64,000 nt of DNA, from the IMG/VR virus record IMGVR_UViG_3300012286_000299, positions 109,277-173,276 of that record; one strand, given 5' to 3'. Shown piece by piece: positions 6,195 to 46,790 of this stretch. The first letter of the stretch is position 1; every line of letters starts with the position of its first letter. Origin of the DNA: a virus. Lineage: Duplodnaviria > Heunggongvirae > Uroviricota > Caudoviricetes. The notes under the pieces were generated by a model that saw only the letters and a program-made list of their open reading frames with translations, searched no databases and was not told the origin of the DNA. The position numbers and the translations under genes were made by a program.

Positions 6195-6295
6195 CAGCTG
6201 TACACTTAGGATGTGATCCATCAACAATTACAGCTAATTTAAGAGGAATAACAAAAAAAGGATTCGGTTATATATGGAAAAGAAAAACAACATAG
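6176..6295 (+). pseudogene. start-less remnant of a homing-endonuclease C-terminal DNA-binding tail
   Basis: Frame 2 reads LVRTKLAAVHLGCDPSTITANLRGITKKGFGYIWKRKTT-stop with no start codon. It resembles the tail of the intact HNH gene at 25103 (ISEAQRQIGGDIKGALAGRQKTAAGFIWKYKN). It overlaps the thyA-like start. Confidence 0.55.
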
Positions 6296-25044: not shown

Positions 25045-25102
25045 TTAGATAAGATAAGTTTTCCATTGGGTACATATATTTATTATCATAAATACGTACC
25101 TA

Positions 25103-25774: not shown

Positions 25775-25786
25775 TTATTATATTAA
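25756..25786 (+). promoter_or_regulatory. promoter, TTG-N20-TATATTAA
   Basis: The -33 TTG lies inside the 3' end of the HNH ORF. TATATTAA at 25779-25786. Precedes ORF 25798. Confidence 0.5.
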
Positions 25787-25797
25787 AATAAAAAAAA

Positions 25798-27105
25798 ATG
25801 AAAAATACATTTGTGATATCATGTCCCATAGATTGTTATGCAGGGTATGGAGCACGTTCACGTGATTTAGTTAAAGCGTTAATTAATTTAGATAAATACG
25901 ATGTTAAAATAATGCCTCAACGTTGGGGAAATACACCTTGGAGTTTTATTGAAGATCATCAAGAAGAATGGGGATTTTTACAACCACATATTTTAACAGG
26001 TCAGTTAACTCAACAACCTGATATTTGGGCTCAAATAACAGTACCTAATGAATTTCAAGCTATTGGAAAATATAATATTGGAATAACAGCGGGTATCGAA
26101 ACTACTATTTGTGCTCCTCAATGGATTGAGGGTATGAATAGAATGAGTTTAAATTTAGTTTCATCAGAACATGCTAAAAAAGTATTTCAAGATTCTAAAT
26201 TTCAAAAACATGATGAAAGGACTAAACAAGTTGTTGGTGTAATAGAATTAACATCTCCTATTGAAGTATTATTTGAAGGAGTAGATATTGTTAAATACTT
26301 TGCATCTACATTAACTCCTACTTCCGAAATAAAGCAAGCCTTAGATAATGTAAAAGAAGAGTTTGCATTTTTATTTGTGGGTCATTGGCTTCAAGGTGAT
26401 TGGGGTCAAGATAGAAAAGATGTAGGAGGGTTAGTTAGAGTATTCTTAGAAGCCTTTAAAAATAAATCTAAAAAACCTGCTCTTATATTAAAAACAATGT
26501 CAGGTCCAACTAGTATTATAGATAGAGATAATATCTTGAAAAAAATAGACGTTATAAGACAATCTATGCCTACTAAAAACTTACCTAATATTTACTTATT
26601 TCATGGTGAAATATCAGACGATGAAATGAATCAATTATATAACCATTCTAAAGTAAAAGCAATGGTTAGTTTTACTAAAGGAGAAGGATTTGGTAGACCT
26701 TTACTTGAATTTACTCAAACTAAAAAACCAGTTATTGCTTCAAATTGGAGTGGACAATTGGATTTCTTAAACCCTGAATTTACTTCATTAATACCTGGTA
26801 CTTTAACTAATATTCATCCATCTGCTCAAGTTAAGGATATGTTAATTGATGGTTCACAGTGGTTTACAGTAGATTATGGATTTGCTGGTGGTATATTAAG
26901 AGATTATTTTGAAAATTATAAAAAATATCAAGATAATGGTAAACGTTTAGCACATTATTGTAAAACTAATTTCTCATTTGAGAAAATGCAAGAAAAATTA
27001 GATACTATATTAACTGCTAATATACCTGAGTTTCCAAAGCAAGTGCAATTGAAATTACCTCAATTAAAAAAGGTTGAGTTACCTAAATTAAAAAAAGTAG
27101 AATAA
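25798..27105 (+). CDS. GT-B glycosyltransferase
   Basis: SFTKGEGFGRPLLEFTQTKKPVIASNWSG (EX7E-like). Confidence 0.75.
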   Translation: MKNTFVISCPIDCYAGYGARSRDLVKALINLDKYDVKIMPQRWGNTPWSFIEDHQEEWGFLQPHILTGQLTQQPDIWAQITVPNEFQAIGKYNIGITAGIETTICAPQWIEGMNRMSLNLVSSEHAKKVFQDSKFQKHDERTKQVVGVIELTSPIEVLFEGVDIVKYFASTLTPTSEIKQALDNVKEEFAFLFVGHWLQGDWGQDRKDVGGLVRVFLEAFKNKSKKPALILKTMSGPTSIIDRDNILKKIDVIRQSMPTKNLPNIYLFHGEISDDEMNQLYNHSKVKAMVSFTKGEGFGRPLLEFTQTKKPVIASNWSGQLDFLNPEFTSLIPGTLTNIHPSAQVKDMLIDGSQWFTVDYGFAGGILRDYFENYKKYQDNGKRLAHYCKTNFSFEKMQEKLDTILTANIPEFPKQVQLKLPQLKKVELPKLKKVE

Positions 27106-27106
27106 A

Positions 27107-27559
27107 ATGAAAGATAAATTATCTATATGCCCACGTTGCGGGAGTGATGCTTGTTATGTCACTCCTGTAAATGAAGTAAAAAACAACTATTTCTGTTTTG
27201 GATGTGGTTTTCAAACAAATGACCTAATGAAAGAAGGTGAATTTGATTTTGAAACATATGAAGAACCATTACCTGAACTATATAAAGATCTTAAAAACAC
27301 TGATTCAGAAAAACGTGTTTGGTATCCAATTACTATTAATATTCAGGATAAAGGAACGGTATTTGCCAATGGAAAAACCAAAGATAATTGGACATGGGCA
27401 GGAGTAAAGGCCGTTGAAGTAAGCGAAGAAGAAAAAGGTAAATTTAAAATACCTGGTACTGAAGATTACTATACTCATAAAACTGATATTAAATCTTTAA
27501 AGAATTATCCACAAGATGATTTTATTGAAGCCCTAGATTATATAGGTTTTTATAATTAA
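27107..27559 (+). CDS. zinc-ribbon protein
   Basis: CPRCGSDAC ... CFGCG. Confidence 0.6.
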   Translation: MKDKLSICPRCGSDACYVTPVNEVKNNYFCFGCGFQTNDLMKEGEFDFETYEEPLPELYKDLKNTDSEKRVWYPITINIQDKGTVFANGKTKDNWTWAGVKAVEVSEEEKGKFKIPGTEDYYTHKTDIKSLKNYPQDDFIEALDYIGFYN

Positions 27560-27562
27560 TAT

Positions 27563-28180
27563 ATGAGAATAAGTTATGCAATTCCTGTTTGTAATGAACA
27601 TGAAGAATTAATGAGATTACTAAGCATCCTCATCACCAATAAAAGAGATGAGGATGAAATAGTAGTTCAATGTGATCAGGGTAATACTACACCTGAAGTA
27701 TATAAAGTATTAGACCAATTTTTTGGTAGAATAAGTGTTATAGAATTTCCATTAAAAGGTAATTTTGCGGCTTTTAAAAATAATTTAAAGAAGCATTGTA
27801 CTGGAGAATGGATTTTTCAAATTGATGCTGATGAATACGTAACTATTGAATTTTTACAAAGTTTACATTTAATTTTACAAGATAATCCTACAACAGAAGT
27901 ATTTTTGCTTCCTAGAATTAATACTGTAGAAGGATTAACTCAAGAGCATATTAATAAATGGAGATGGAATGTAAATGAGAAAGGATGGGTTAACTTCCCA
28001 GATTTACAACCTCGTATACTTCAAAATTCACCTAAAATTAATTGGGGTAATAAAGTACATGAAGTACTAATGGGTCATAGTACATGGTCTACTTTACCAT
28101 TAGAAGATGATTATTGTCTGTATCATCCAAAACATATTGAAAGACAAGAACGACAAAATAATTTATACGATTTATTATGA
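27563..28180 (+). CDS. GT-A (family 2-like) glycosyltransferase
   Basis: ISYAIPVCNEHEEL ... QIDADEY (DxD). Confidence 0.7.
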   Translation: MRISYAIPVCNEHEELMRLLSILITNKRDEDEIVVQCDQGNTTPEVYKVLDQFFGRISVIEFPLKGNFAAFKNNLKKHCTGEWIFQIDADEYVTIEFLQSLHLILQDNPTTEVFLLPRINTVEGLTQEHINKWRWNVNEKGWVNFPDLQPRILQNSPKINWGNKVHEVLMGHSTWSTLPLEDDYCLYHPKHIERQERQNNLYDLL

Positions 28181-29529
28181 TAAAATTTATAATATTTGAT
28201 TTAGATGGTGTTTTAGTAGAAGCCAAAAATATTCATTTTGAAGCTTTAAATGAAGCTTTAGGAAAAAAATATGAAATATCTTGGAATGAACATTTAAGTA
28301 AATATGATGGTTTAAAAACAAATCAAAAACTTGAAATGTTAACTCAAGATAAAGGGTTACCTGTTGCATTATATAAACAAGTTTGGGATGAAAAACAACG
28401 ATTAACTTTACATAAGTTAAAAAACTTACAACCTGATACTCAATTAATGGTTTGTATGGATTCATTAGTACAACAAGGTTATAAATTAGCAGTATGTTCA
28501 AATAGTATACGTAAAACTGTATTAACAGTGTTATCTAAATTAAATATAATTGAAAATTTTGATTTAATATTATCTAATGAAGACGTAAAGAATAGTAAAC
28601 CTCATCCTGAGATTTATTGGAAAGCCATATCACAAATGGGTTTTTTACCTGAGGAAACACTTATTGTTGAGGATTCACCTTATGGTTTACTAGCCGCAAG
28701 CAGGAGTAAAGCTTCTGTAATGAGAGTTGGATCCCCAAAAGATATTTCGTATAATAACATTTATAAATACTTAAACCAAGAAAAAATGAATTTAACACCT
28801 AAATGGAAAGATGACAAATTAAATGTTTTAATTCCTATGGCTGGAGCTGGTTCACGTTTTGAACAAGCAGGTTATACTTTTCCTAAACCTCTAATAGAAG
28901 TAAAAGGTAAACCAATGATCCAAGTTGTAGTTGAAAACTTAAACTTAGAAGCAAATTATATTTATGTAGTACAAAAAGCTCATAGACAAAAATATAACTT
29001 AGATACATTATTAAATCTAATTACACCAGGATGTAAAATTGTAGAGACTGATGGGTTAACTGAAGGAGCAGCATGTACTGCTTTATTAGCTAAAGAATTT
29101 ATAGACAACAATGCTCCATTGTTTTTTGCTAATTCAGATCAATTTGTAGAATGGGACTCAAATGAATTTATGTATAAAATGAATGAAACTAACGCTGATG
29201 GTGGTATTGTTTCATTTACTGCTACTCACCCTAAATGGTCATTTGCTAAAGTTGATGAAAACGGATTAGTAACTAAAGTTGCTGAGAAAAATCCTATTTC
29301 AGATATAGCAACTGTAGGATATTACTACTGGAAACATGGTTCAGATTTTGTTAAATATGCTGAGCAAATGATTGAAAAAAATATAAGAGTAAATAATGAA
29401 TTCTATGTATGTCCTGTATTTAATCAAGCAATTGAAGATTGTAAACAAATCCGAACTTTTAACACTAATGGAATGTGGGGTCTTGGAACACCTGAAGATT
29501 TAAATTATTATTTAGAACATTATGTATAA
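28177..29529 (+). CDS. bifunctional HAD phosphatase/mutase-like plus sugar-phosphate nucleotidyltransferase
   Basis: N-terminal IIFDLDGVLVEA (DxDG) ... VCSNS ... VEDSPYG. C-terminal LIPMAGAGSRF...KPLIEVKGKPMI. Confidence 0.8.
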   Translation: MIKFIIFDLDGVLVEAKNIHFEALNEALGKKYEISWNEHLSKYDGLKTNQKLEMLTQDKGLPVALYKQVWDEKQRLTLHKLKNLQPDTQLMVCMDSLVQQGYKLAVCSNSIRKTVLTVLSKLNIIENFDLILSNEDVKNSKPHPEIYWKAISQMGFLPEETLIVEDSPYGLLAASRSKASVMRVGSPKDISYNNIYKYLNQEKMNLTPKWKDDKLNVLIPMAGAGSRFEQAGYTFPKPLIEVKGKPMIQVVVENLNLEANYIYVVQKAHRQKYNLDTLLNLITPGCKIVETDGLTEGAACTALLAKEFIDNNAPLFFANSDQFVEWDSNEFMYKMNETNADGGIVSFTATHPKWSFAKVDENGLVTKVAEKNPISDIATVGYYYWKHGSDFVKYAEQMIEKNIRVNNEFYVCPVFNQAIEDCKQIRTFNTNGMWGLGTPEDLNYYLEHYV

Positions 29530-30322
29530 ATTACATATAGTAATACCTATTGGAGTAAGTTCACCTGGGACTCCAGTACCTGAATTTTTATTAAATGGTA
29601 TAGAAAGTTTAAAAGAACAAACATTAGATGATATTCTAATTACAGTAGCAGCTGACGAAAATATATCAGATGAATGTAAACAAGTATTAAAAGATACAGG
29701 TGTAAATGTTGAATGGTTTCCTGAGTATTCTTATTTTACTAAAGAAGGAATTTGGGGTAAAATATTTAAATGTTGGGAAAATTATGATTCACAATATGTT
29801 TCATTTCTTCATTATGATGATCTTTGGGAAAGTAATAAAGCTTTAAATCAAATTAATTTTATTGAAAAAAACAATTTAGATGGTTGTTGGTCCCAAGTAT
29901 ATCTTATAAATGATAATAATGAAATTACTAGTGGAGATAGTATGCAAATTAGTAAATTATCTGCTAATTCTGTAGGATATTTAATTCCATGGATGTGTCA
30001 TTCTACTATTATAAAAAAAGATACCATATTAAACTGTGGAATATTAGAATATAGAGAAAAATGGAATTGTGATTTTGAATGGTTATATACTGTATTTTTA
30101 CATAAAATTAAAAACCTAATGAAATGTGAGGATGCTATATTTTTATGGAGACAACATGAAAGTCAAGTATCACACGCTCAAGGGATTAATATGAAAGAAG
30201 ATAATAATCATGTTAAAGAACAAAGAGAACTTGTAGGTTATTCGTTTGATGAAACCATGGAAGATTCTCGTTATGTGATGGAAAATATAAATTTAGAGGA
30301 GATTAAAAAACTATACAAATAA
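29522..30322 (+). CDS. GT-A (family 2-like) glycosyltransferase
   Basis: LHIVIPIG...ESLKEQT...ILITVAADE...FLHYDDLW. Confidence 0.65.
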   Translation: MYKLHIVIPIGVSSPGTPVPEFLLNGIESLKEQTLDDILITVAADENISDECKQVLKDTGVNVEWFPEYSYFTKEGIWGKIFKCWENYDSQYVSFLHYDDLWESNKALNQINFIEKNNLDGCWSQVYLINDNNEITSGDSMQISKLSANSVGYLIPWMCHSTIIKKDTILNCGILEYREKWNCDFEWLYTVFLHKIKNLMKCEDAIFLWRQHESQVSHAQGINMKEDNNHVKEQRELVGYSFDETMEDSRYVMENINLEEIKKLYK

Positions 30323-30324
30323 AA

Positions 30325-31011
30325 ATGGAAAATTTAAATCAATATGTAAATATGCTTAATGAAGCATACAAAATGGGAACAAATAACCACCCAGAACACA
30401 ATTCAAATCCTAATTATTGGGGCTTACTTTTAAATAGTATTAAATCAAATCCTGAAAACTGGGATGGGAAAAAAGCACTTGATTTTGGGTGTGGTAAAGG
30501 AAGAAATGTAACTAATATGTTATCTTTAGCTAATTTTGAAAGAGTAGATGGTATAGATGTTAGTGAAGATAATGTTAGATACTGTAAAGAAATATACACT
30601 AATCAACCTTCTGACTTTTATAAAAATTCAGGGGAAGATTTATCTGATTTAAATGATAATGAATATGATTTTGTAATGAGTACTATTGTATTCCAACATA
30701 TTTGTGTACATGAATTAAGATATAAATTAAAAGAAGAAATATATAGAGTATTAAAACCTGGAGGAGAATTTTCATTCCAAATGGGATTTGGACCTATAGA
30801 TTGGAGTGGTAATACAAAACAGAGAACTTACTTTGAAAATGGGTATAACGCTGAAAATTCTAATGGAAGTAATGATGTTCGAGTATCAGACCCACAAGAT
30901 TTAGTTAATGATTTAAGTAAAATTGGTTTTAAAGATATTACTTATTCTGTTGAAGAGCCTTGGGAAGATGGAGGTCATCCTAATTGGATTTATGTAAAAT
31001 GTTTTAAATAA
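30325..31011 (+). CDS. SAM-dependent methyltransferase
   Basis: Motif I ALDFGCGKGRN, then LKPGGEF. Confidence 0.8.
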   Translation: MENLNQYVNMLNEAYKMGTNNHPEHNSNPNYWGLLLNSIKSNPENWDGKKALDFGCGKGRNVTNMLSLANFERVDGIDVSEDNVRYCKEIYTNQPSDFYKNSGEDLSDLNDNEYDFVMSTIVFQHICVHELRYKLKEEIYRVLKPGGEFSFQMGFGPIDWSGNTKQRTYFENGYNAENSNGSNDVRVSDPQDLVNDLSKIGFKDITYSVEEPWEDGGHPNWIYVKCFK

Positions 31012-31871
31012 TGAACACTTGTATATTTACAACTCATACCACTTTAAATTTAAAACATGCTGAATACAGTTTGAAGTCCCTATTGGGGCTTCAAAGTGTT
31101 GATGTGATATGGGATAATTTTATAATTTATAATACTCATGATCATGAATTGAGTAACTATGATTTAGTAAATTTAATTAAACAATTTGATGTTAAGAATT
31201 ATATTAAAAACCTTTTAATATTTCCTTATGATTCTGAAATAAATAAAAAAAATTTATTACAAGATATAAGAAATTGGTATGATATAGGATTATCATTAGA
31301 ATTACAAAACACACCAGGTAAAATGTTATGGTTAAAATCAGACTATTGTGTTTCTAATAATTTCAACCAAATATTCTTAGAACATAGTCTTAATAATTGT
31401 ATGTGGTCATTACCTACATTAGGGGCTAAACAAAAAATTAGTTATGACACTATATTAACTAAACTTAATTTACCTGAGTTTACTACATCAGATTTTGAAA
31501 CATATTATAGGGGAGGAGATAATCCTAATAATGAATTATCTAATGAAGAAATATCACCTAATGGAGAAATGGATTATCATCCATCTATAAATTATGTTTC
31601 TCATAATTACGTTCATGATTTTAACTTACATGTTATATCTAATGATACTTTAGAATTAGGTAGAGAATTAGCTTATCATCCTCAAGTATTCGATATGAAT
31701 TCAACATGGGGTGGTCCCCATAATTTATTTTATGGTTTGAAACAAAATGGAGTGTATTTTAGTGGTGAATATAGAGCTTATGGTATCCATATGTTTCATG
31801 AAATAATTTCTGAAAATAGGTTGGAAGACAGAGGAGATGATCGTAAATTACATATAGGAGAAAAATATTAA
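31011..31871 (+). CDS. hypothetical protein of the glycosylation island
   Basis: ORF track; TAATG coupling; no motif recognised. Confidence 0.6.
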   Translation: MNTCIFTTHTTLNLKHAEYSLKSLLGLQSVDVIWDNFIIYNTHDHELSNYDLVNLIKQFDVKNYIKNLLIFPYDSEINKKNLLQDIRNWYDIGLSLELQNTPGKMLWLKSDYCVSNNFNQIFLEHSLNNCMWSLPTLGAKQKISYDTILTKLNLPEFTTSDFETYYRGGDNPNNELSNEEISPNGEMDYHPSINYVSHNYVHDFNLHVISNDTLELGRELAYHPQVFDMNSTWGGPHNLFYGLKQNGVYFSGEYRAYGIHMFHEIISENRLEDRGDDRKLHIGEKY

Positions 31872-31877
31872 AAAATT

Positions 31878-32312
31878 ATGATACTAATTTCACATAGAGG
31901 GAATACAAACGGGAAGTTTGAATCCTATGAAAATGAACCTAATTACATTGATAAAGCCATATCAGAAGGATATGATGTTGAAATTGATATTTGGTGTATT
32001 GAAGGTCTTTTATTATTAGGACATGATAAACCACAATACGGTATAACACAACATTGGTTAAATGAACGACATGATAAATTATGGATACATTGTAAAAATG
32101 TAGAAGCTGTAGAATGGTTTAACATGATTAAAGGGTTTAATTATTTTTGGCATGAAGAAGATACAGTAACATTGACATCACATGGATTTATTTGGGCTTA
32201 CCCAGGTAAACAACCTATAAAAAATTCAATAGCAGTATTACCTGAAAAATACAATGATAATTTAAATCAATGTATAGGAATATGCTCCGATTATTTAAAA
32301 AATTATAAATAA
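31878..32312 (+). CDS. glycerophosphodiester phosphodiesterase (GDPD)-like
   Basis: ISHRGN...ENEPNYIDKAISEGYDVEIDIW follows the HRG..EN..E.D pattern. Confidence 0.6.
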   Translation: MILISHRGNTNGKFESYENEPNYIDKAISEGYDVEIDIWCIEGLLLLGHDKPQYGITQHWLNERHDKLWIHCKNVEAVEWFNMIKGFNYFWHEEDTVTLTSHGFIWAYPGKQPIKNSIAVLPEKYNDNLNQCIGICSDYLKNYK

Positions 32313-32908
32313 TGAAAAACAGAGTTATTTTAGGAGGACCTTTAAGAGGAAATATAAATAACTGGAATAAATTACAAGAATTATTCTCATTATTATCAGC
32401 TGAGGTATACGTGTCATCTTATACAAAATGGGAAAATGTTCCTTTTGAATATCATTATACTCAAACAAAACCCTTTTTAGATTTAACATGTTTTTCTCAA
32501 GGACAACATGTTCACAATGCTAGATATAAAGAACAATGGGAATCATTATATACTTGTTATTCTACCTTTTCTCCATCATTTTCAGAAGATGATATAATCT
32601 TTAAATTAAGAAATGATATATGTTTAGAATCTTCATTAAATATATTATTAGAACTCCAAATAAAAGATAATTACATACACGCTCCCAATACTGAATTTCA
32701 TATGAATTGTCCATTTGATGTGAATGTAGTATGTAATGACCAATTTTATATTTCTAAAAAACCAGTAGCTGATAAGATCTTTAATCTTCCTTATAATTTT
32801 GTATTTGATTCTAATAAAGATTTAGGTATAGAAGCTATTTTACGGGATTATATGTCACAACAAAATATCAATTTAGAAACATTTGAATTTAAATACTCCC
32901 GAGTATGA
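32312..32908 (+). CDS. hypothetical protein of the glycosylation island
   Basis: ORF track; TAATG coupling. Confidence 0.6.
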   Translation: MKNRVILGGPLRGNINNWNKLQELFSLLSAEVYVSSYTKWENVPFEYHYTQTKPFLDLTCFSQGQHVHNARYKEQWESLYTCYSTFSPSFSEDDIIFKLRNDICLESSLNILLELQIKDNYIHAPNTEFHMNCPFDVNVVCNDQFYISKKPVADKIFNLPYNFVFDSNKDLGIEAILRDYMSQQNINLETFEFKYSRV

Positions 32909-33618
32909 AGTTAGCAATTTGCATAAGTGGTCAACCTAGAAATTTTGAACAAGGTTATGAAAGTTTAAAAACTTATTTTTTAGACAAATATGATTGTGAT
33001 ATTTACTTTCATACTTGGAAAATTGATAGTTTTGAATCAACTAATTTTGGTTTTGGTAATCATCAATATAGTTTTGATAGAAATGATTATTATAGTTTAA
33101 ACTTTTTATATCAACCCAAAAATCACATTTTAGAAAATCCTATTATATTTGATAGTAGTGGTTATAAATGTCCAATTTGGAGACAACCACTAAATAATAC
33201 ATTAAGTATGTTTTATTCTATTTATAGATCTTTTCAATTAATTGAAGGGAATTATGATTATATTATAAGAACTAGATTTGATGTAAATTACTCTAAATTT
33301 AATTTGGAGTTTCCAGAAAAAGGTATTATATTACCAGAATGGAATACTGATATTAGAGTTAAATCTAGGGGTTATTATGATGTATTTGCTTTGGGTAAAC
33401 CCGAAGATATGAAAATATATTCACAAGTATTTTCAAATATTATATCTTATGTAACTAATGATGAAGATTTTCTTAACTTCTTAACAGGAGGTTGGCCTGG
33501 ACAAGACTCACCATTAAGAAATGAGTATTTATTAAAATGGCATTTATTAAAAAATAATATAAAAGTAAAAGAATTACCTACATTAGAAATAAAAGCTGAT
33601 GTTGGTTTAATAAGATAA
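32905..33618 (+). CDS. hypothetical protein of the glycosylation island (possible transferase)
   Basis: ORF track. The N-terminus MKLAICISGQPRN loosely echoes ORF 32312 (ILGGPLRGN). Confidence 0.6.
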   Translation: MKLAICISGQPRNFEQGYESLKTYFLDKYDCDIYFHTWKIDSFESTNFGFGNHQYSFDRNDYYSLNFLYQPKNHILENPIIFDSSGYKCPIWRQPLNNTLSMFYSIYRSFQLIEGNYDYIIRTRFDVNYSKFNLEFPEKGIILPEWNTDIRVKSRGYYDVFALGKPEDMKIYSQVFSNIISYVTNDEDFLNFLTGGWPGQDSPLRNEYLLKWHLLKNNIKVKELPTLEIKADVGLIR

Positions 33619-33619
33619 T

Positions 33620-34534
33620 ATGAAAGGAGTCATAACTATATTTGCATTACCCCAAGAATTAGAAGATTTATCTTTAACATTATATAACCTAAAAAGAAAT
33701 TCAGTTTATTTAGACCCACAAGACAAATATTCAGTAGACATAACATTATGTTTATCAGATGAATTAACAGATTGGAACAGTTCTATATTACCTAAAGATT
33801 ATATTGAACAACGAACTATTGAATTATGTAAAAAGTTTTTAGATTGGTGTGAATATGATTTAAATATTGAAAAAGGAGATAATATATTAGGATGTGTTTC
33901 TCAAAGACGATATAGTTTAAATAAACATCAAGATGCTGATTTTTTTATTTGGTTAGATTGTGATTTTATATTTAAAGATTCAACATTATCCTATATGGCT
34001 ACTGCATATCAAAATATAAAAGATATAGGAACTAATAATTTTATTCTAACCCCTCAATTTGTAAGACAATGGGACACTTCATGGGATGTATTAGTTAATG
34101 AAAAATTTATAAATCACCCTATATGTTACCACGAATCAGCAGATGTTTATATTGATACCCTTCCACAAAATGATGAAATACAAGTTAAACAAATCAATAA
34201 CATTAAATTTGCAGGTGGGTGGTTCACATTAATAACAGGTAAATTATTACAAGAAATAACTATCCCTGAATCTTTAGGCCATTATGGTTTAGAAGATAAT
34301 TTTGTTATTGAGTGTTCTAAAATACTACAACATAAAGGTGTAAATATATCTCAATTTATATTAGACGGACTTGTTATAGGTGAAAGTTATACTCATAGAC
34401 CAAATCAAACTATTAAAAATTTTATTACAAGTAAAAATAGAAAACAAGAATTTACTCAAATAGCACAAGATAATTTTCCAATTGAATTAAATAAATTTTA
34501 TGAAAGAAGTAACAGTAGTATTAACAGCCTGTAA
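33620..34534 (+). CDS. GT-A-like glycosyltransferase (tentative)
   Basis: FIWLDCDFIF DxD-type motif; context. Confidence 0.5.
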   Translation: MKGVITIFALPQELEDLSLTLYNLKRNSVYLDPQDKYSVDITLCLSDELTDWNSSILPKDYIEQRTIELCKKFLDWCEYDLNIEKGDNILGCVSQRRYSLNKHQDADFFIWLDCDFIFKDSTLSYMATAYQNIKDIGTNNFILTPQFVRQWDTSWDVLVNEKFINHPICYHESADVYIDTLPQNDEIQVKQINNIKFAGGWFTLITGKLLQEITIPESLGHYGLEDNFVIECSKILQHKGVNISQFILDGLVIGESYTHRPNQTIKNFITSKNRKQEFTQIAQDNFPIELNKFYERSNSSINSL

Positions 34535-35189
34535 TAGGGCAGATTTATTAGAACGAACTTTAGATAGTTTTTTCGAAATGAACACTTATCCTCTTAAACG
34601 TTTTATTATCATTGATGATGGGATGAATTTTGGATGTAATGATTTTGTTAAAGATAAATATGATTTTCCTATTGAATTAATTTATAATGATCCTAAATTA
34701 TATCAAATTAAATCTATTGATTATGCCTATTCTTTAGTTGATACTGAATATATATTTCATATGGAAGAGGATTGGTTATTTCTTAAATCAGGTTTTATTG
34801 AAGATTCAATAGAAATATTAGAACAAGATCCTAACATAGTTCAAGTATGGTTAAGAGGTTTAGATGATAAAACTTTAAATCACCCTTATTCTCCTGATTT
34901 ATATTCTAGTGGTGATAAAAAATTAGTAATGAATTTACCTAATGGAGTATGGGGTGGAATTAGTTTTAACCCGGGATTAAATAGATTAAGTGATTGGAAA
35001 TCATTTGCTAATGGTTATGATGGATGTACTAGATTAACTCCTCCAGAAAACAGTGGTGGTGTAACACTTGAATGTGATATATCATATGAAAACATTCAAC
35101 GAGGTAAAATCACTATGAGATTTGTAGAATCATACATAGAACATATAGGATGGGATAGACATATAATACACGGAATAAATGGAGAATAA
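34500..35189 (+). CDS. GT-A (family 2-like) glycosyltransferase
   Basis: VTVVLTACNRADLLERTLDSF...FIIIDDG...HMEEDW. Confidence 0.7.
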   Translation: MKEVTVVLTACNRADLLERTLDSFFEMNTYPLKRFIIIDDGMNFGCNDFVKDKYDFPIELIYNDPKLYQIKSIDYAYSLVDTEYIFHMEEDWLFLKSGFIEDSIEILEQDPNIVQVWLRGLDDKTLNHPYSPDLYSSGDKKLVMNLPNGVWGGISFNPGLNRLSDWKSFANGYDGCTRLTPPENSGGVTLECDISYENIQRGKITMRFVESYIEHIGWDRHIIHGINGE

Positions 35190-36384
35190 ATTTAATATAA
35201 GCAATATATCAGTTGTTGTACCAAGTTACAATAATTTAGAATACCTTAAATCTTTATATAAATCAGTTAGACAAGTTTCATCTGAAATTGAATTAATAAT
35301 GTTTAGTGATGGTTCAACTGATGGGACTAAAGAATGGTTAGAACAATTAAATGATTCTAATTCAATAATAAAATGTTATAATGAAAGAAAGGGACATACC
35401 TTATTATATGATGAAGGATTTTTATTAGCAACTAAAGAAATCATAGGTATATTACATGCTGATATGATTGTAAATAAGAATTTCTTTAATTCTATTATAA
35501 AACATATTGCTACTAATAATATAGTTTGTGGAACGTGTATAGAACCACCTTTACACCCACCTGGAGGAGAAAAACATATATTAGATCTTGGAATGTATCC
35601 TAATGAATTCAATGAGGATAAATTTAATAGTTTTTGTAATGATAAAGATGTAAATCAAATATCCGAAGGTATATTTGCTCCTTGGTTTTTACTTAAAGAT
35701 GATTATATATCAAAAATAGGTAAACATGATATTATATATGCTCCTTATGGATACGAAGATAGTGATCTATTTACTAGAATGGCTTTAGCTAATTTTAATT
35801 TTATACAAAGTAGAGATGCTTTTGTATATCATTTTACTCAAAGAGGTCATAAATGGACTAAAGGAGTAGGGATAGAAAATAATGATTATCAGTATCAAAT
35901 GGGTAAAACTCGAAAAGAATATATTAGAAAGTTTGGGAGTGATCCTAAATTTGATTTTAATCATAAACCTACCCCTTCACCTAAATATAATATTGCTTAT
36001 GTAGTTAAACATGCAAACATGCAAATAGTAGAAGTATTAGAACCTTGGTGTGATAGACTTTATATTGAAGACAGTATGCAAGTGATTACAGATTCTTATA
36101 GAGAAAAAGAACAACTAAATACCAAGTTTGATTTATCAAAAAGAGTTCTTACATTGGAGTATAATGATCCAAAAGGAGAGAATGACATCGTAGTAGAATT
36201 TGATGCAAAACAATTTACAAATGCCGATTTTGCTTTCTTACAAAGACTTCCTGAGATTATAAAAGATAATGGAGATATAGGTGAATTTGAATTTGATATA
36301 TTTAAAATAACTATCAATTCAATGACTGAATACCAAAATGATTTAATTTATTTTGATAAAAATAATATTTATATTAAAACATAA
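35179..36384 (+). CDS. family 2 glycosyltransferase
   Basis: ISVVVPSYNNLEYLKSLYKSV...FSDGSTDGT...HADMIV. Confidence 0.85.
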   Translation: MENKFNISNISVVVPSYNNLEYLKSLYKSVRQVSSEIELIMFSDGSTDGTKEWLEQLNDSNSIIKCYNERKGHTLLYDEGFLLATKEIIGILHADMIVNKNFFNSIIKHIATNNIVCGTCIEPPLHPPGGEKHILDLGMYPNEFNEDKFNSFCNDKDVNQISEGIFAPWFLLKDDYISKIGKHDIIYAPYGYEDSDLFTRMALANFNFIQSRDAFVYHFTQRGHKWTKGVGIENNDYQYQMGKTRKEYIRKFGSDPKFDFNHKPTPSPKYNIAYVVKHANMQIVEVLEPWCDRLYIEDSMQVITDSYREKEQLNTKFDLSKRVLTLEYNDPKGENDIVVEFDAKQFTNADFAFLQRLPEIIKDNGDIGEFEFDIFKITINSMTEYQNDLIYFDKNNIYIKT

Positions 36385-41718: not shown

Positions 41719-42327
41719 ATGGAAGTTAAAATCTACAGAGAGCCTGAAAATGAAGCTCTAATATTGGATGAAGAACAATTAGCAGAATATCATGAATTAA
41801 CTGCTGAGTTGGGTCTTCAAGTTGTTGATCAGCAAGAACAAAAAGTACCAAACGTTTATACATTTCTAAACTCTGCTATGACTAAACAATTACATGCTAT
41901 ATGTCCTAGACATTTAAAAGTGGAAGAGTATAAAAAATCTACTATACCTGTAGAGGTATTGAAAGTGTTAAAGTTTGCTAAAGAACAAAACATGTATGAA
42001 GGTTATGAAATTTGGTATAATGATGTTGAACCAGATCCACTGTTAATTGGATGGAATTATTCAAATGATAGAGCTAGAGAAAACAATTATGATTGGCAAA
42101 AAGATAGATTCTTAATGGCTCGTTGGGGTGATTGCGCTATGGAATTACCTGAATTACTACAAGTAGGATTTGATAAGTTAAAACAAGAATTAATTGATAA
42201 AGCTAAACAAGCCATATCAACTTGCAAATCAGTAATAGAAGACCCTGACATGTATGTTAGAAAAGTGTTGAGTGATCAATCTGCTAACATCGATTTAACT
42301 ACTACTTCATCAAACACAATTTATTAA
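41719..42327 (+). CDS. hypothetical protein
   Basis: ORF track. Confidence 0.6.
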   Translation: MEVKIYREPENEALILDEEQLAEYHELTAELGLQVVDQQEQKVPNVYTFLNSAMTKQLHAICPRHLKVEEYKKSTIPVEVLKVLKFAKEQNMYEGYEIWYNDVEPDPLLIGWNYSNDRARENNYDWQKDRFLMARWGDCAMELPELLQVGFDKLKQELIDKAKQAISTCKSVIEDPDMYVRKVLSDQSANIDLTTTSSNTIY

Positions 42328-42328
42328 T

Positions 42329-42925
42329 ATGAAATTCAAATCACAACAAGCTTTTAATTATCACGAATTAAAAGGGTTATATCCTTACATTAAAGGTACA
42401 AAAGGTTTTATAGCAGGAGGATGCTTCAAAGACATATTTGCAGGTAACAAAGCTAGAGACATTGATGTTTTCTTTGAAAATGAAAGCGACTATAAAAAGG
42501 CTGTAAAACTTTATAAAACCAAAAATAATTTTAAGAAAATATACTCAAACGACAACTGTACAGGGTATAGAGATCTTAAAAACAATGTTGGAGTTGAATT
42601 AGTTAAATCAATATTTGGAACACCTGAAGCGGTGTTGGAGCAATTCGATTTTACTATTGTAAAAGCAGCTTACTATAACCCACCTACAGACGAGCAAGAA
42701 ATTCAATTCATATTTCACCCTGACTTTTTTGAGCATTTGCTTCTTAAAAGATTAGTTTTAGATGATGCTATACCTAGAGCTGTAGCAACACTTAACAGAA
42801 GTTGGAAATATGCTGCTTATGGATTTGGGTTGTGTAGAGAAAGTAAAGTTAAATTATCAAATGAGATTATCAACAAAGGAGTTGTTGATGACATTAATGG
42901 AGATTTATATTTTGGATATGACTAA
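42329..42925 (+). CDS. divergent class-II nucleotidyltransferase (CCA/poly(A)-polymerase head-domain-like)
   Basis: AGGCFKDIFAGNKARDIDVFF (GGxxxD...DxD) and QFDFTIVKAAY (compare RRDFTINA). Confidence 0.55.
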   Translation: MKFKSQQAFNYHELKGLYPYIKGTKGFIAGGCFKDIFAGNKARDIDVFFENESDYKKAVKLYKTKNNFKKIYSNDNCTGYRDLKNNVGVELVKSIFGTPEAVLEQFDFTIVKAAYYNPPTDEQEIQFIFHPDFFEHLLLKRLVLDDAIPRAVATLNRSWKYAAYGFGLCRESKVKLSNEIINKGVVDDINGDLYFGYD

Positions 42926-43403
42926 TAAAATATATAGAATGTATGGGTTAGTTCCATACAATATTAGCCCAATTCAGCAAGCTATTCAATATGGACATGC
43001 AGTTGTTGAGTATTTGAACAGTTATTTTAATGAACCTGACTGTACTGAGTGGAGATTGAATGATAAAACATTTATTATCTTAAATGGGGGTACAACTAAC
43101 AAATCATATTCAGAGTTTGGTACATTAAATAAACATCAACAGACGTTAAAATTTGCTGGAGTACGTAATGCTAGTTTTTTTGAACCTGATTTAGGAAATC
43201 AATTAACAGCAGTTGTCTTCTTGGTTGATGAAAGAGTTTATGATAAAAAGATGTGGCCTGATTATAATGGGTTATGTTACATGGATGGAACACCTGATGA
43301 AACAGAGTATTATACTTGGAAAATGCAATTTGCTGAAACTGAAGAAGAAGTAAACCAAATATTATTTTTAAGAGATTTCTTAAAACAATTTAGATTGGCT
43401 TAA
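42918..43403 (+). CDS. PTH2-like (peptidyl-tRNA hydrolase 2 fold) protein, tentative
   Basis: The track frame 42810 was trimmed to the ATG at 42918. SPIQQAIQYGHAV and FFEPDLGNQLTAVVFLV resemble PTH2 blocks. Confidence 0.4.
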   Translation: MTNKIYRMYGLVPYNISPIQQAIQYGHAVVEYLNSYFNEPDCTEWRLNDKTFIILNGGTTNKSYSEFGTLNKHQQTLKFAGVRNASFFEPDLGNQLTAVVFLVDERVYDKKMWPDYNGLCYMDGTPDETEYYTWKMQFAETEEEVNQILFLRDFLKQFRLA

Positions 43404-43425
43404 CTAAAAATTCTTCGTATATTAA
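43395..43425 (+). promoter_or_regulatory. promoter, TTG-N20-TATATTAA
   Basis: TTG at 43395-43397 and a TTCGTATATT core. Precedes ORF 43443. Confidence 0.65.
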
Positions 43426-43442
43426 ATCAAAATTAAAAGGTT

Positions 43443-44180
43443 ATGCCAAAATTATTTAAAGTAGGAGGATGTGTTAGAGATAGGTTGCTAGGAGTAAAGA
43501 CAAAAGATATTGACTTTGTATTTGTTCTAGATGATCTAAACAAAACAGTTGAAGAAGGATTTCAAGAGATGAAATCTTGGATGGAGAATGAAGGATTTAC
43601 AATATTCCTATCAGTCCCTGAAATGTACACAATCAGAGCTAAATTCCCACCTGACCATAAATTCGCTAAATTAGATGCTGACTTTGTAATGGCTCGTAAA
43701 GAAACTGGTTATGAAGAAGGAACAAGACGTCCTGTTTTAGAATTAGGAACTCTTGAAGATGATTTGGTTCGTAGAGACTTCACAGTTAATGCTATGGCTG
43801 AGGATGAGGATGGAAACATTATTGATATGTTCAATGGATTAGAAGATTTAGATTTTATGTTACTTCGTACTCCATTAGATCCAAAAGATACATTCATGGA
43901 TGATCCTTTGAGAATCTTACGTGCATTGAGATTTGTAATTACAAAAGGATTTACAATGTACGTAGATGTTTGGGAAGCAATACAACAACCACACATCCTA
44001 GCCAAACTAACTCAAACTGTAAGCAGTGAGAGAATAAGAGAAGAGGTATTAAAGATGATGGCTGTAGATACTCCAAGAACAATTCGATTGTTAATAGATA
44101 TTGATAATGAAGTGCCAGGATTTTTAGAAGTAGTATTCAAAGAAGGATTGTGGTTAAAACCAACATTTGAAAAAATATAG
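43443..44180 (+). CDS. cca: tRNA nucleotidyltransferase (CCA-adding enzyme family), short form
   Basis: GGCVRDRLLGVKTKDIDFVF, RRDFTVNAMA, DPLRILRALRF. Confidence 0.88.
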   Translation: MPKLFKVGGCVRDRLLGVKTKDIDFVFVLDDLNKTVEEGFQEMKSWMENEGFTIFLSVPEMYTIRAKFPPDHKFAKLDADFVMARKETGYEEGTRRPVLELGTLEDDLVRRDFTVNAMAEDEDGNIIDMFNGLEDLDFMLLRTPLDPKDTFMDDPLRILRALRFVITKGFTMYVDVWEAIQQPHILAKLTQTVSSERIREEVLKMMAVDTPRTIRLLIDIDNEVPGFLEVVFKEGLWLKPTFEKI

Positions 44181-44182
44181 TT

Positions 44183-44404
44183 ATGGAGAATTTTAGATTA
44201 CAAGCACTAGAAAGACGTGCTGAGGAACTAGTATTGGAATTAAGGGAACAAGGATTAATCAATCCAGATTTTGAATTGATCGGAGCAATAATATTTAATA
44301 AGTATAAGGGCTCTGAAGATAGGTTTAATGACCTTATTGGTAATATTGTAGAATTGAGAAAAGAAGCAGAAGACTTCCTTAAAAAACTAAAAGATGATAA
44401 ATAA
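44183..44404 (+). CDS. small coiled-coil protein
   Basis: ORF track. Confidence 0.55.
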   Translation: MENFRLQALERRAEELVLELREQGLINPDFELIGAIIFNKYKGSEDRFNDLIGNIVELRKEAEDFLKKLKDDK

Positions 44405-44996
44405 TATAGAACAAATAAAAGGATTGCTTCATTTTGAAGCACCAGGTGATTTTTATATGTTATACGTTTTTAAACGTAAGAAAGATCAGCCTGAAGGTGA
44501 AAGAGATAATCATCAATCAGTACGAACAATTAAGACATACTGTATTGAAAGTATCGATCACTTGGAAAGACGTTATGATGAGATCATACAACTGTGTGAA
44601 ATGTTTAAAGCAAGAGCTTATATTCACGTACAGAAACAGAACCATGCAGATGTATCATTGGAAATGATGATGGCACTTGCTCAACGTATTAAGAACGGAC
44701 AGCCAAATCAAAAAGGTTTATTCGATTCTGTTGTAGGTCAAATCAAGACTCAAGAAAAGAGATGGATTGTTGACATTGATACAAAAGATTTTGACTATGT
44801 GAAGAATGTACATGACTTTATCAATACTTTACAACCTGCAGGGCATAAAACTGAAGCTATTGTACCTACTAAGAATGGTTGTCATTTAATTACTTGTAAG
44901 TTTAATGTAATGGAATTTGCAAAACAATTCCCGGATGTTGATATACAGAAAAAGAATCCAACTTTATTATACTATCCTGATAGTTTGGATTTTTAA
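44394..44996 (+). CDS. hypothetical protein (WIVDIDTKD ... VPTKNGCHLI; a faint AEP/prim-pol-like pattern, unverified)
   Basis: ORF track; motif resemblance only. Confidence 0.55.
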   Translation: MINNIEQIKGLLHFEAPGDFYMLYVFKRKKDQPEGERDNHQSVRTIKTYCIESIDHLERRYDEIIQLCEMFKARAYIHVQKQNHADVSLEMMMALAQRIKNGQPNQKGLFDSVVGQIKTQEKRWIVDIDTKDFDYVKNVHDFINTLQPAGHKTEAIVPTKNGCHLITCKFNVMEFAKQFPDVDIQKKNPTLLYYPDSLDF

Positions 44997-45015
44997 ATTA
45001 AACTTCGTATATTTA
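44985..45015 (+). promoter_or_regulatory. promoter, TTG-N20-TATATTTA
   Basis: TTG at 44985-44987 (inside the 3' end of ORF 44394) and a TTCGTATATTTA core. Precedes ORF 45038. Confidence 0.65.
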
Positions 45016-45037
45016 ATCAAATAAAAAGATAAAGGTT

Positions 45038-45490
45038 ATGAAATTAAAAGAAAAGTTATTTGCTGACTTCATCACAGCAATGAAAGCTAAAGATGAAGTA
45101 GCTAAATCTGCCTTAAGTAGTGTTAAAGCCAAAATTATTGAAGCTGAAAAAGCAGCTGGTAATTGGGAACCTACAGATAGTGAAGTGTTAAAGATTATAA
45201 TCAAAGCTATTAAACAACGTGAAGAATCACAAGCTATATTTTTTAGTTCAGGCAGGATTCAACTTTCAATAGACGAAGCCAATGAAGCATCTGTACTGAG
45301 AAATTATTTACCCCAACAAATGACTGAAGTTGAAATTGAAAATGCAATACGCACAATTTCATCTGATATAATTGGTGTTGTTAATAATATGCAGGCCCTG
45401 AAAGGTAAAGTTATTGGTGAATTCAATAAACAATATAATGGGCAAGCTGATATAAATTTGGTAAAGCAAATTGTAGAGCGTATATTATGA
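45038..45490 (+). CDS. GatB/YqeY-domain protein
   Basis: LKEKLFADFITAMKAKDEVAKSALSSVKAKI ... LRNYLPQQMTEVEIENAI ... NLVKQIVERIL. Confidence 0.75.
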   Translation: MKLKEKLFADFITAMKAKDEVAKSALSSVKAKIIEAEKAAGNWEPTDSEVLKIIIKAIKQREESQAIFFSSGRIQLSIDEANEASVLRNYLPQQMTEVEIENAIRTISSDIIGVVNNMQALKGKVIGEFNKQYNGQADINLVKQIVERIL

Positions 45491-45666
45491 AAACAGTTTT
45501 AAGATTAATAAGTCGTGAGGGTAGTGACTTCATTGAAGTCCCAAACCCTTATAATATGACTCCAAGAAAAGACGATAATTTCGTTTGGAAAGAAAAATGT
45601 TATGTAGTTGATTGGGTTGAGTTTGATTTTGACACAAACACACTTTATATAATTTCAGTAAAATAA
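45487..45666 (+). CDS. hypothetical 59-aa protein (below cutoff)
   Basis: ATGA coupling to the YqeY-like ORF. Fills the gap before the ligase gene. Confidence 0.5.
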   Translation: MKTVLRLISREGSDFIEVPNPYNMTPRKDDNFVWKEKCYVVDWVEFDFDTNTLYIISVK

Positions 45667-45668
45667 TT

Positions 45669-46790
45669 ATGACAAAATTTCCAGCGTTGTATAAACGTTC
45701 AAACAGTAAAGACCACATTAATGAGTGGCAAATCGAAGTTGATGGTTGTATGTTTAGAACTACAACTGGGTTTGTAGGTATGAAAATGTTTACAGGCGAT
45801 TGGACAGTATGTTCTCCTAAAAATATTGGGAAGAAAAACGGAACCACTGCAGAACAACAAGCATTAGCTGAAGCTCAAGCGCTATGGCAAAAACGTAAAG
45901 ATTTAGGTTATTGGGAGGACGTTAATGACTGTGATAAGAAAGTATTCTTCCAACCTATGTTGGCACAAGACTATGATAAACGTAAAGGTAAAATCAAATA
46001 CCCTATCTTATCACAACCTAAATTAGATGGTGTTAGATGTGTCATTAAATCAGACGGAATGTGGTCTCGTAATGGTAAAGAAATTATATCTGCACCACAT
46101 ATATTTGAGAATCTAAAGCATATCTTCGAGAGTCAACCTGACCTAGTGTTAGACGGTGAGTTATATACTTCAGATAGGAGCGTTGATTTTAACACAATTA
46201 TTTCATGTGTTAGAAAGACAAAACCAACACAAGATGATTTAGATATGTCACAACAATACATAGAGTATTGGATGTATGATATAGTAAATGATAAGGATCA
46301 AGGTTATGAAGAGCGATATGAAGATTTAATTGACTTGATGTTGAATTACAAATTAGATACTTTATTGTTTCATGTAGTAGCTACTTATGAACTGCCTGAT
46401 GAAAAACACGTTATTGACCAGTTAAGTCATTACCTTGAACAAGGTTTTGAAGGGCAAATACTACGTGAATGTAATTCGTTTTATGAAAATAAACGCTCAA
46501 ATGGTTTATTAAAGCATAAAATATTTCATGATGAAGAATTTAAAATTCTAGCTATCAATGAAGGTGTAGGTAAATTTGCTAATAAAGCTGCTACAATGTC
46601 GTTTCAAACATCAATTGGTGTTAAATTTGATGCTACTATTAATGGTACTATGGCTTATTTAGAAGAAATTTGGGCTAATAAAGACAATTTAATAGGTAAG
46701 TTAGCAACTGTTAAGTATTTTGAAGAAACTACTGATGGTTCACTACGTTTTCCTAAAGTAATTAATATTGATAGAGCTAGTTATGAATAA
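45669..46790 (+). CDS. ATP-dependent DNA ligase
   Basis: Motif I KLDGVR, motif III VLDGELY, motif IV EGQILR, motif V LLKHK, motif VI-like LRFPKV. Confidence 0.88.
   Translation: MTKFPALYKRSNSKDHINEWQIEVDGCMFRTTTGFVGMKMFTGDWTVCSPKNIGKKNGTTAEQQALAEAQALWQKRKDLGYWEDVNDCDKKVFFQPMLAQDYDKRKGKIKYPILSQPKLDGVRCVIKSDGMWSRNGKEIISAPHIFENLKHIFESQPDLVLDGELYTSDRSVDFNTIISCVRKTKPTQDDLDMSQQYIEYWMYDIVNDKDQGYEERYEDLIDLMLNYKLDTLLFHVVATYELPDEKHVIDQLSHYLEQGFEGQILRECNSFYENKRSNGLLKHKIFHDEEFKILAINEGVGKFANKAATMSFQTSIGVKFDATINGTMAYLEEIWANKDNLIGKLATVKYFEETTDGSLRFPKVINIDRASYE

Follow-up and report, generated by a model that had tools for sequence, protein, structure and literature searches.

Sets of RNA-repair genes that include a CCA-adding enzyme, RlaP, and PTH2 have been described in jumbo phages (Iyer et al. 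2021, PMC7824862), and tRNA 3′ tails are targeted by bacterial immunity via Cas12a3 (PMC12851939). The present analysis concerns a related gene cluster in a 64,000-nucleotide stretch of viral DNA (Caudoviricetes; positions 109,277 to 173,276 of the IMG/VR record IMGVR_UViG_3300012286_000299), hereafter the window, for which a preliminary description had proposed that two class-II nucleotidyltransferases (ORF 42329 and ORF 43443; open reading frames, ORFs, are named by their first position) divide CCA synthesis around a PTH2-like gene (ORF 42918). The locus is an RNA-repair neighbourhood of the type already known from large and jumbo phages, here in altered form. In our judgement, the region at 42.3–45.5 kb is rather likely to be a phage tRNA/RNA-end maintenance neighbourhood of this known kind, with a three-gene core and with ORF 42329 not being half of a split CCA-adding system. 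As such, the preliminary description is supported in part: the tRNA-maintenance set is present, and a two-enzyme CCA system is not indicated. Bacterial immunity and toxins often target the ends and anticodon loops of tRNAs, and phage genes that rebuild tRNA are therefore likely counter-measures to such attacks. The cluster can be seen as a compact tRNA kit, composed of a CCA enzyme without a body, a remodelled PTH2-fold protein, a YqeY protein, and a conserved protein (ORF 44394) whose family tracks tRNA arrays (Table 1).

Like the jumbo-phage sets, the locus brings together a CCA enzyme of class II, a protein with the PTH2 fold, and a second nucleotidyltransferase of the Pol-beta superfamily, and the same logic can be proposed for it, with damaged tRNA ends being restored and peptidyl-tRNA being freed. 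It differs from them in that the second nucleotidyltransferase belongs to the class-II-like PF26128 family and not to RlaP, and the CCA enzyme consists of head and neck only (245 aa). Gln takes the place of the catalytic Lys in the PTH2-like protein, and neither an RNA ligase nor Pnkp was found in the window. The cluster of the Certrevirus phages (Pectobacterium phage PcCB7V and Cronobacter phage CR3) is similar in that a homologue of ORF 42918 (34% identity) adjoins the CCA enzyme and a second nucleotidyltransferase lies ~1.2 kb away. There, however, the CCA enzyme is full-length (438 aa) and carries an HD domain, RlaP serves as the second enzyme, the host is enterobacterial, and no homologue of YqeY or ORF 44394 was found in the 12 kb examined. 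The T4 Pnkp/Rnl1 system is likewise a phage-encoded answer to host tRNA damage, and Pnkp directly follows the PTH2-like gene in one viral locus (L235), whereas in T4 a kinase-phosphatase and an RNA ligase mend anticodon-loop breaks, and neither has a counterpart found in the window.

ORF 43443 was assigned to the CCA-adding family by several libraries. It matched the Pfam PolyA_pol head (E = 7.5e-20; 72 bits, cut-off 23) and PolyA_pol_RNAbd (7.2e-6), as well as the PHROGs profile phrog_24229 ‘tRNA nucleotidyltransferase’ (4e-68), which itself has 245 positions; the NCBIfam CCA models were matched at ~1e-32, all far under their full-length cut-offs. The best PDB relatives were CCA-adding and A-adding enzymes (9kma, 2.6e-24; 1vfg, 2.4e-19). 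The alignments with the solved enzymes from Arabidopsis, S. pombe, Aquifex, Bacillus, and Thermotoga covered all five motifs (A to E) as well as the flexible loop, and ended near residue 219 (solved enzymes, 340–580 aa), with the body and tail domains not present. The Pfam, PHROGs, and PDB alignments thus agree with the preliminary description, which had read this ORF as a CCA-family enzyme with head and neck only. Motif A (GGCVRDRLLG...DIDF) was invariant in the family alignment (A4), motif B was RRDFTVNAMA, motif C was present, motif D was DDPLRILRALRF, and motif E was SSERIREEV. Moreover, the flexible loop was full-length and comparable to that of the Arabidopsis CCA enzyme (9kma); this loop is shortened in CC-adding enzymes. 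Homologues of ~245 aa annotated as tRNA nucleotidyltransferase were found in Cellulophaga, Microbacterium, and Synechococcus phages, and further homologues in Arthrobacter phages, the head-and-neck form being a recurrent phage family. Since ORF 43443 has all the core motifs together with the flexible loop for C and A addition, a partner is not indicated, and judging by these motifs the enzyme probably synthesises or restores the complete CCA end by itself.

The second nucleotidyltransferase, ORF 42329, was far more divergent. Among its 222 homologues, all those listed carried the precomputed Pfam tag PF26128, an accession for which a full-text literature search found no paper, and the ORF matched phrog_4400 at 2.4e-52. 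Its score against Pfam PolyA_pol (14 bits, E = 0.066) was under the gathering cut-off of 23, and single-sequence and profile searches against PDB sequences returned nothing meaningful. Comparison of its family with the CCA family by hhalign gave E = 7.7e-4 over 42 columns that covered motif A only, the sole class-II motif detectable by sequence in this ORF. An AlphaFold model built from 39 sequences reached a pLDDT of 91, and Foldseek searches of the PDB with this model returned class-II CCA-, CC-, and A-adding enzymes and the E. coli poly(A) polymerase as the top 22 matches. The same enzyme types accounted for almost all of the best 43 matches, ranks 23–24 being two FAM46 chains (E 2e-7 to 2e-3 and TMq 0.46 to 0.65 across the PDB matches), confirming at the fold level the second class-II-type head of the preliminary description. 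The nearest viral structures were uncharacterised nucleotidyltransferases of phages and giant viruses.

The preliminary description had seen a divergent version of the class-II head motifs in ORF 42329; motif A stands, and motifs B and D are not kept. In the family alignment (A1), G30, G31, D44, and D46 were invariant and position 90 was always E or D. Because the metal-binding triad (D44/D46/E90) is kept, ORF 42329 is probably an active nucleotidyltransferase. Past motif A, the motifs were mapped by ourselves with the secondary structure of the model as a guide; motif B was QFDFT versus RRDFT (family consensus xFDFT), with both arginines lost, and the templating motif D, [ED]DxxR, was absent, the matching helix (AVATLNRSWKY) having only T154 and R157 conserved. 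The RlaP profile PF10127 gave no match to ORF 42329 at E up to 1; the bona fide RlaP proteins of PcCB7V and of the viral locus L207 scored 60–66 bits on it. At the C-terminus, Y194-x-G196-x-D198 was invariant across 39 diverse members, and this conservation could mark a site of self-modification or partner binding. The model is disordered at these residues (pLDDT <50).

Gene linkage was analysed in a sample of 240 viral-contig loci, 80 for each of the ORF 42918, 44394, and 42329 families, queried with the window proteins. Unless stated otherwise, counts refer to genes within 10 kb among the 80 loci of a family, and they represent non-independent events, as the loci come from related metagenomic phages with shared ancestry. 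For the ORF 42329 family, a CCA enzyme was present in 2/80 loci and a PTH2-like gene in 0/80; a tRNA gene lay within 1 kb in 1/80, and a tRNA gene or CCA enzyme occurred anywhere in the locus in 13/80. Both CCA-linked loci (L088 and L089) were from near relatives of this phage. On one 270-kb contig, the ORF 42329 homologue was ~75 kb away from the PTH2-like gene.

These results bear directly on the model of the preliminary description, according to which ORFs 42329 and 43443 would divide CC and A addition, as in Aquifex aeolicus and some other bacteria, and ORF 42918 would clear stalled or mischarged tRNAs. As in Aquifex, a single genome encodes two proteins with class-II-type heads, and the ORF 42329 model matched both Aquifex structures (4wc2/1vfg and 3wfo-3wfs). 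In addition, the two genes flank the PTH2-like gene in one packed co-directional run, the phage has a tRNA-like gene without an encoded CCA, and both proteins are without body and tail domains, making their specificity unreadable from sequence. However, in the bacterial split systems motifs B and D are retained in both enzymes, which also possess body and tail domains, whereas ORF 42329 has neither the RR of motif B nor EDxxR, and ORF 43443 has a complete core, including the flexible loop and motif D that are used for C and A addition. The scarcity of joint loci also speaks against a split, as does the complete 31-kb Streptococcus phage SW26, which carries a member of the ORF 42329 family and in which no tRNA gene and no CCA enzyme was found. 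Furthermore, a near relative of this phage (L256) has a PTH2-like protein, a CCA enzyme, and an ORF 44394 homologue (83%, 78%, and 78% identical to the window proteins, respectively), but the gene overlapping the start of its PTH2-like gene encodes a calcineurin-like phosphoesterase, with no nucleotidyltransferase there. With the nucleotide-selecting residues missing from ORF 42329 and its family not tracking CCA enzymes, the division of CCA synthesis between the two proteins is highly improbable.

A different alternative is that ORF 42329 is unrelated to tRNA, being a mobile accessory nucleotidyltransferase (e.g., an enzyme for counter-defence, or one whose targets are DNA ends or nucleotides) that is a chance neighbour in a variable early region. 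Its family was scattered over phages of seven host genera (Streptococcus, Bacillus, Listeria, Lactococcus, Aeromonas, Maribacter, and Bacteroides), and in S. thermophilus phages, including SW26, the homologue lies between RecT/nuclease genes and SSB. The low share of loci with any tRNA gene or CCA enzyme and the uncharacterised viral nucleotidyltransferases as closest structural relatives point the same way. By contrast, the nearest solved structures are all tRNA/RNA 3′-end polymerases, the 8-nt overlap between the reading frames of ORF 42329 and ORF 42918 suggests coupled expression, and RlaP, another Pol-beta nucleotidyltransferase, takes the same position in L207. An accessory role is thus possible, though on balance unlikely.

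ORF 42918 had been called PTH2-like with low confidence; the fold now supports this, whereas no Pfam match (including PF01981) and no meaningful PDB match in single-sequence and profile searches was obtained, and the catalytic Lys is replaced by Gln. The ORF has 3156 homologues, those listed sharing ≥59% identity with the query, and it matched phrog_3668 ‘hydrolase’ at 1.2e-16. Its model (pLDDT 91) returned PTH2 structures as all of the top 13 PDB matches in Foldseek (2zv3, 3erj, 1q7s, 1wn2, 1rlk, and 1xty among them), with E 8e-4 to 2.5e-2, probability 0.92–1.0, and TMt ~0.6 for crystal structures and 0.41 for the nuclear magnetic resonance (NMR) model 1rzw. About 100 residues align to PTH2, followed by ~55 extra C-terminal residues. 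The PcCB7V homologue, which reached 18.7 bits on PF01981 (E = 0.002, cut-off 23), forms a bridge in sequence between the ORF 42918 family and PTH2. Moreover, hhalign of the family against PDB PTH2 sequences gave E = 0.028, and MAFFT gave the same register.

In this alignment, Q24 and H27 of ORF 42918 match the Q..H pair in helix 1 of PTH2 (Sulfolobus Pth2 and human Bit1/PTRH2), and the W, the β-strand, and the acidic-loop pattern are conserved as well. The catalytic residues of Sulfolobus Pth2 are the Lys K18 and the Asp/Thr pair D86 and T90. K18 aligns with the invariant Q20 of ORF 42918, the alignment being weak and the register probable, and D86 falls on the invariant E89, two residues ahead of D91, with the T90 loop deleted. 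Also unlike PTH2, ORF 42918 does not keep R9 and D11, has the DAGxT loop shortened to E-P-D-L-G, carries the extra C-terminal domain, and falls under the Pfam threshold. Tandem PTH2-fold genes were found in two loci (L221 and L240; about 9503–10507), where the gene immediately preceding the PTH2-like member encodes a canonical PTH2 (PF01981 27.6 bits, GK motif), so the two are unlikely to be redundant. Given the Lys-to-Gln exchange, the tandem canonical PTH2, and the strong PARP/macrodomain neighbourhood described below, the PTH2-like family may have a substrate that is not peptidyl-tRNA.

RNA-repair genes recurred in the neighbourhood of the PTH2-like family. Its loci held a CCA enzyme in 23/80 cases, RlaP in 15, YqeY in 11, a member of the ORF 44394 family in 10, the ligase in 7, Pnkp in 2, and the ORF 42329 family in 0; a tRNA gene or CCA enzyme occurred in 36/80 loci, and a tRNA within 1 kb in 0/80. 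Contiguous orders included YqeY-CCA-PTH2-like (L218), CCA-PTH2-like (L220), CCA-RlaP-PTH2-like (L207), and PTH2-like-Pnkp (L235), and the order in the distant PcCB7V, an independent lineage, was CCA (with HD), PTH2-like, three small genes, and RlaP. Thus, the CCA, PTH2-like, and YqeY genes recur together in unrelated phages, loosely grouped and in many different orders, which bears out the general part of the preliminary description, a tRNA 3′-end maintenance set.

The same loci also contained a macrodomain gene (30/80), a PARP gene (24/80), and a calcineurin-like phosphoesterase (12/80). The macrodomain, assigned by PDB matches to BT1257 and ADP-ribose 1''-phosphate phosphatase, was directly downstream of the PTH2-like gene in 26/79 cases and PARP directly upstream in 13/77, these being the commonest identifiable immediate neighbours. 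A PRPP-synthetase/NAMPT-like gene was seen in one PTH2-like locus (L217), and a gene of the same family follows the ORF 44394 homologue in L030 and L066; together, the PARP, macrodomain, and PRPP-synthetase/NAMPT-like neighbours suggest an NAD/ADP-ribose theme. Another frequent neighbour of PTH2-like genes was a 175-aa protein with two HxS motifs, no Pfam or PDB match, and an unknown PHROGs annotation; judged by eye, it is a putative 2H phosphoesterase.

It could accordingly be argued that the PTH2-like family is a hydrolase of NAD/ADP-ribose-linked nucleic-acid repair or counter-defence, working with PARP-like and macrodomain proteins, and that the CCA gene is just one neighbour among several. 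Besides the neighbour counts, the replacement of the catalytic Lys by an invariant Gln and the canonical PTH2 beside the PTH2-like gene in L221 and L240 are in line with this, as are the PARP gene after the CCA gene in Cellulophaga phage phi17:2 and a PARP-like ORF at 47–1111 of the window. The latter, however, is 42 kb off, no macrodomain gene was found in the window, linkage to CCA, YqeY, RlaP, and Pnkp is also seen, and on the PTH2 profile a score is still obtained for the PcCB7V homologue. Moreover, no activity other than ester hydrolysis on tRNA is known so far for the PTH2 fold. We consider this alternative improbable.

Several of these observations nevertheless weigh against a tRNA-end maintenance neighbourhood. 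The 20 kb surveyed around a gene corresponds to ~12% of a 170-kb genome, so that CCA co-occurrence at 28–29% is only a modest enrichment, and the shared ancestry of the loci makes the linkage counts non-independent. The gene just upstream of PTH2-like homologues was mostly a small unknown ORF, which weakens the positional argument for ORF 42329, and the commonest immediate neighbours, macrodomain and PARP, speak for ADP-ribose chemistry as much as for CCA repair. The PTH2-like family is without the catalytic Lys, adjoins a canonical PTH2 in two loci, and may, from its sequence, not hydrolyse peptidyl-tRNA at all. Finally, genes for RNA ligase, Pnkp, RlaP, and a macrodomain were not found within the window.

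For the tRNA/RNA-end maintenance neighbourhood that we favour, the observed folds, motifs, and linkages lead us to infer a scheme, conditional in its substrates, its order of steps, and its role against host tRNA-directed defence. ORF 43443 would probably make or repair the CCA end whole, with no partner, and ORF 42918, as a remodelled PTH2-fold hydrolase, would probably unblock tRNA 3′ ends that carry a peptidyl, aminoacyl, or other ester-linked group. The YqeY protein (ORF 45038) would probably aid tRNA binding, and ORF 44394 would belong to the same neighbourhood through genomic linkage. ORF 42329, whose family moves independently among unrelated phages and which looks like an add-on to the cluster, would be a catalytically competent nucleotidyltransferase with a class-II-type head and a different nucleotide pocket; its gene immediately precedes the PTH2-like gene, with translational coupling. 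As that position is held in some other phages by RlaP, a CCA enzyme, a phosphoesterase, or PARP, ORF 42329 may act as an extra RNA 3′-end tailing or healing enzyme, analogous to RlaP; the wider distribution of its family allows an unrelated accessory role equally well.

ORF 44394 had been listed as unknown, and indeed no match was found in Pfam, NCBIfam, PADLOC, or the PDB; NCBIfam and PADLOC also had no match for ORF 42329 or ORF 42918. It had 6632 homologues (listed ones 76–85% identical), forming 1643 representative clusters at 50% identity. In the family alignment (A3), N4, R28, K30, R74, and D127-x-D129 were invariant, and P158, G162, and H164 were conserved at ≥90%. Longer members showed no informative fused domain, and interpretations of D-x-D...G-x-H as HAD phosphatase, TOPRIM, 2H, Tpt1, Thg1, or primase-polymerase (AEP) received no profile support, although the spacing of D-x-D...G-x-H resembles that of AEP motifs I and II.

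In other phages, the ORF 44394 family was linked to CCA enzymes and tRNA arrays. Its loci held a CCA enzyme in 22/80, a phosphoesterase in 22/80, and the ORF 42329 family in 0/80, and 51/80 held a tRNA gene or CCA enzyme. Arrays of tRNA genes lay ≤1 kb from the gene in 16/80 loci, always on the same strand (ORF 42329 family, 1/80; ORF 42918 family, 0/80), and twelve loci with an array within ~270 nt of the gene had 13–29 tRNA genes. In two loci (L004 and L005), the homologue overlaps the CCA gene by 4 nt, in Cellulophaga phage phi17:2 it is directly upstream of the CCA gene, and in the near relatives L088 and L089 the order is CCA, ORF 44394 homologue, ligase. The family also occurs in Lak megaphages, in Tenacibaculum phage pT24, and in a crAss-like phage, where an RNA ligase lies 2 kb away. 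As such, ORF 44394 belongs to the tRNA-maintenance neighbourhood by genomic linkage.

Taken together with the remodelled PTH2-like family, ORF 44394 is among the most interesting loose ends of the locus. A bolder joint proposal would make ORF 44394 a new tRNA-processing or end-healing enzyme that works with the body-less CCA enzyme, since its homologues overlap or abut CCA genes and flank arrays of 13–29 tRNA genes; the PTH2-like protein would be a new hydrolase of blocked RNA 3′ ends that works with PARP and macrodomain proteins, and ORF 42329 a new RNA-tailing nucleotidyltransferase. We put this forward tentatively and consider it doubtful, including the part in which ORF 44394 would found a large family absent from all searched libraries, with a conserved core of R, K, R, D-x-D, and G-x-H. 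The locus raises the questions of whether a 245-aa head-and-neck enzyme makes CCA alone or requires help in tRNA binding from YqeY or ORF 44394, what the target of a PTH2 fold without the catalytic Lys is, and which nucleotide and substrate the widespread PF26128 enzyme uses. A link to tRNA-dependent DNA hypermodification (Mom paper) was also checked and dropped.

Table 1. Genes and tRNA-like elements of the locus and its surroundings, in window positions
Position	Strand	Feature	Basis of assignment
41719..42327	+	Orphan ORF, 202 aa, first of the packed run	No homologue found
42329..42925	+	Stand-alone nucleotidyltransferase, class-II-like head and partial neck, 198 aa	PF26128 tag, phrog_4400, alignment A1, model, Foldseek
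42918..43403	+	PTH2-fold protein, 161 aa, with ~55-aa C-terminal extension	phrog_3668, alignment A2, model, Foldseek, hhalign/MAFFT
43443..44180	+	Minimal class-II CCA-adding enzyme, 245 aa, head and neck only	Pfam, PHROGs, NCBIfam, PDB alignments, alignment A4
44183..44404	+	73-aa ORF between the CCA gene and ORF 44394	ORF list; Pfam and PHROGs scanned
44394..44996	+	Highly conserved protein, 200 aa	Homologue listing, alignment A3, neighbourhood counts
45038..45490	+	YqeY-family protein, relative of the GatB C-terminal domain	PF09424, phrog_1460
45487..45666	+	59-aa ORF	ORF list; Pfam and PHROGs scanned
45669..46790	+	ATP-dependent DNA ligase, T7 or Chlorella-virus size	PF01068 and DNA_ligase_OB_2, phrog_114, NF006592
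55298..55366	+	tRNA-like gene, no encoded CCA, aberrant anticodon arm	ARAGORN, Rfam tRNA 44.8 bits
55484-55586		Second tRNA-like element; cloverleaf with a long imperfect hairpin for anticodon arm; no CCA	

Regarding the layout of the locus, nine ORFs are packed on the + strand at 41719–46790, with gaps of ≤41 nt and three overlaps, and the ORFs of the preliminary description are all present on that strand at the coordinates in Table 1. The first terminator-like hairpin on the + strand does not appear before 46814; scans for sigma-70 promoters, the Bacteroidetes -7 motif, and terminators were uninformative. The first ORF of the run (ORF 41719) had no match in Pfam, PHROGs, NCBIfam, or PADLOC, and no tblastn match in the 240 related loci. 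When the region was compared with 50,697 phage records by Megablast, nothing matched, and the phage is in that sense without a close cultured relative. The host of this large phage is probably a member of the Bacteroidota, and the phage belongs to a large, uncultured group that probably came from aquatic metagenomes and probably has such hosts.

Downstream of ORF 44394, the YqeY assignment and the adjacent ATP-dependent DNA ligase were recovered as previously described, the latter by Pfam, PHROGs, and NCBIfam. ORF 45038 matched PF09424 at 1.4e-30 (106.7 bits, cut-off 27) over profile positions 1–143 of 143, and a tRNA-binding role is inferred for it. ORF 45669 is probably a replication gene, and in relatives (L088 and L089) the ligase comes directly after the ORF 44394 homologue. 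The 73-aa ORF is missing in relatives in which the CCA gene and the ORF 44394 homologue overlap directly.

The first tRNA-like gene, which the preliminary description had listed as lacking CCA, is real by its Rfam score, and its CCA is indeed not encoded; it is a candidate substrate of the CCA enzyme. Its anticodon arm has 16 nt versus the 18 expected by the Rfam model. The two tRNA-like elements share an identical ~24-nt 3′ half (T arm and acceptor strand), and both are similar to the tRNA-like module found in bacterial Y RNAs. In the near relative L256, a TROVE/Ro60 gene lies 2 kb upstream of the PTH2-like gene; a TROVE gene was not found in the window.

Elsewhere in the window, genes for 7-deazaguanine (preQ0) synthesis were observed, namely QueD/PTPS (9406–9882), a radical-SAM QueE-like protein (9872–10747), and GTP cyclohydrolase I (10804–11499), together with a MazG-like pyrophosphohydrolase (12502–13026), and these genes could serve DNA or tRNA modification. 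An enlarged thymidylate-synthase homologue (411 aa) is encoded at 6274–7509, and at least four glycosyltransferases are clustered at 23620–36384 with a HAD/sugar-nucleotidyltransferase fusion (28177–29529); they may represent a DNA hypermodification or glycan pathway. In addition, the family-B DNA polymerase is apparently split into two ORFs (14085–15812 and 16077–17012) that lie ~260 nt apart.

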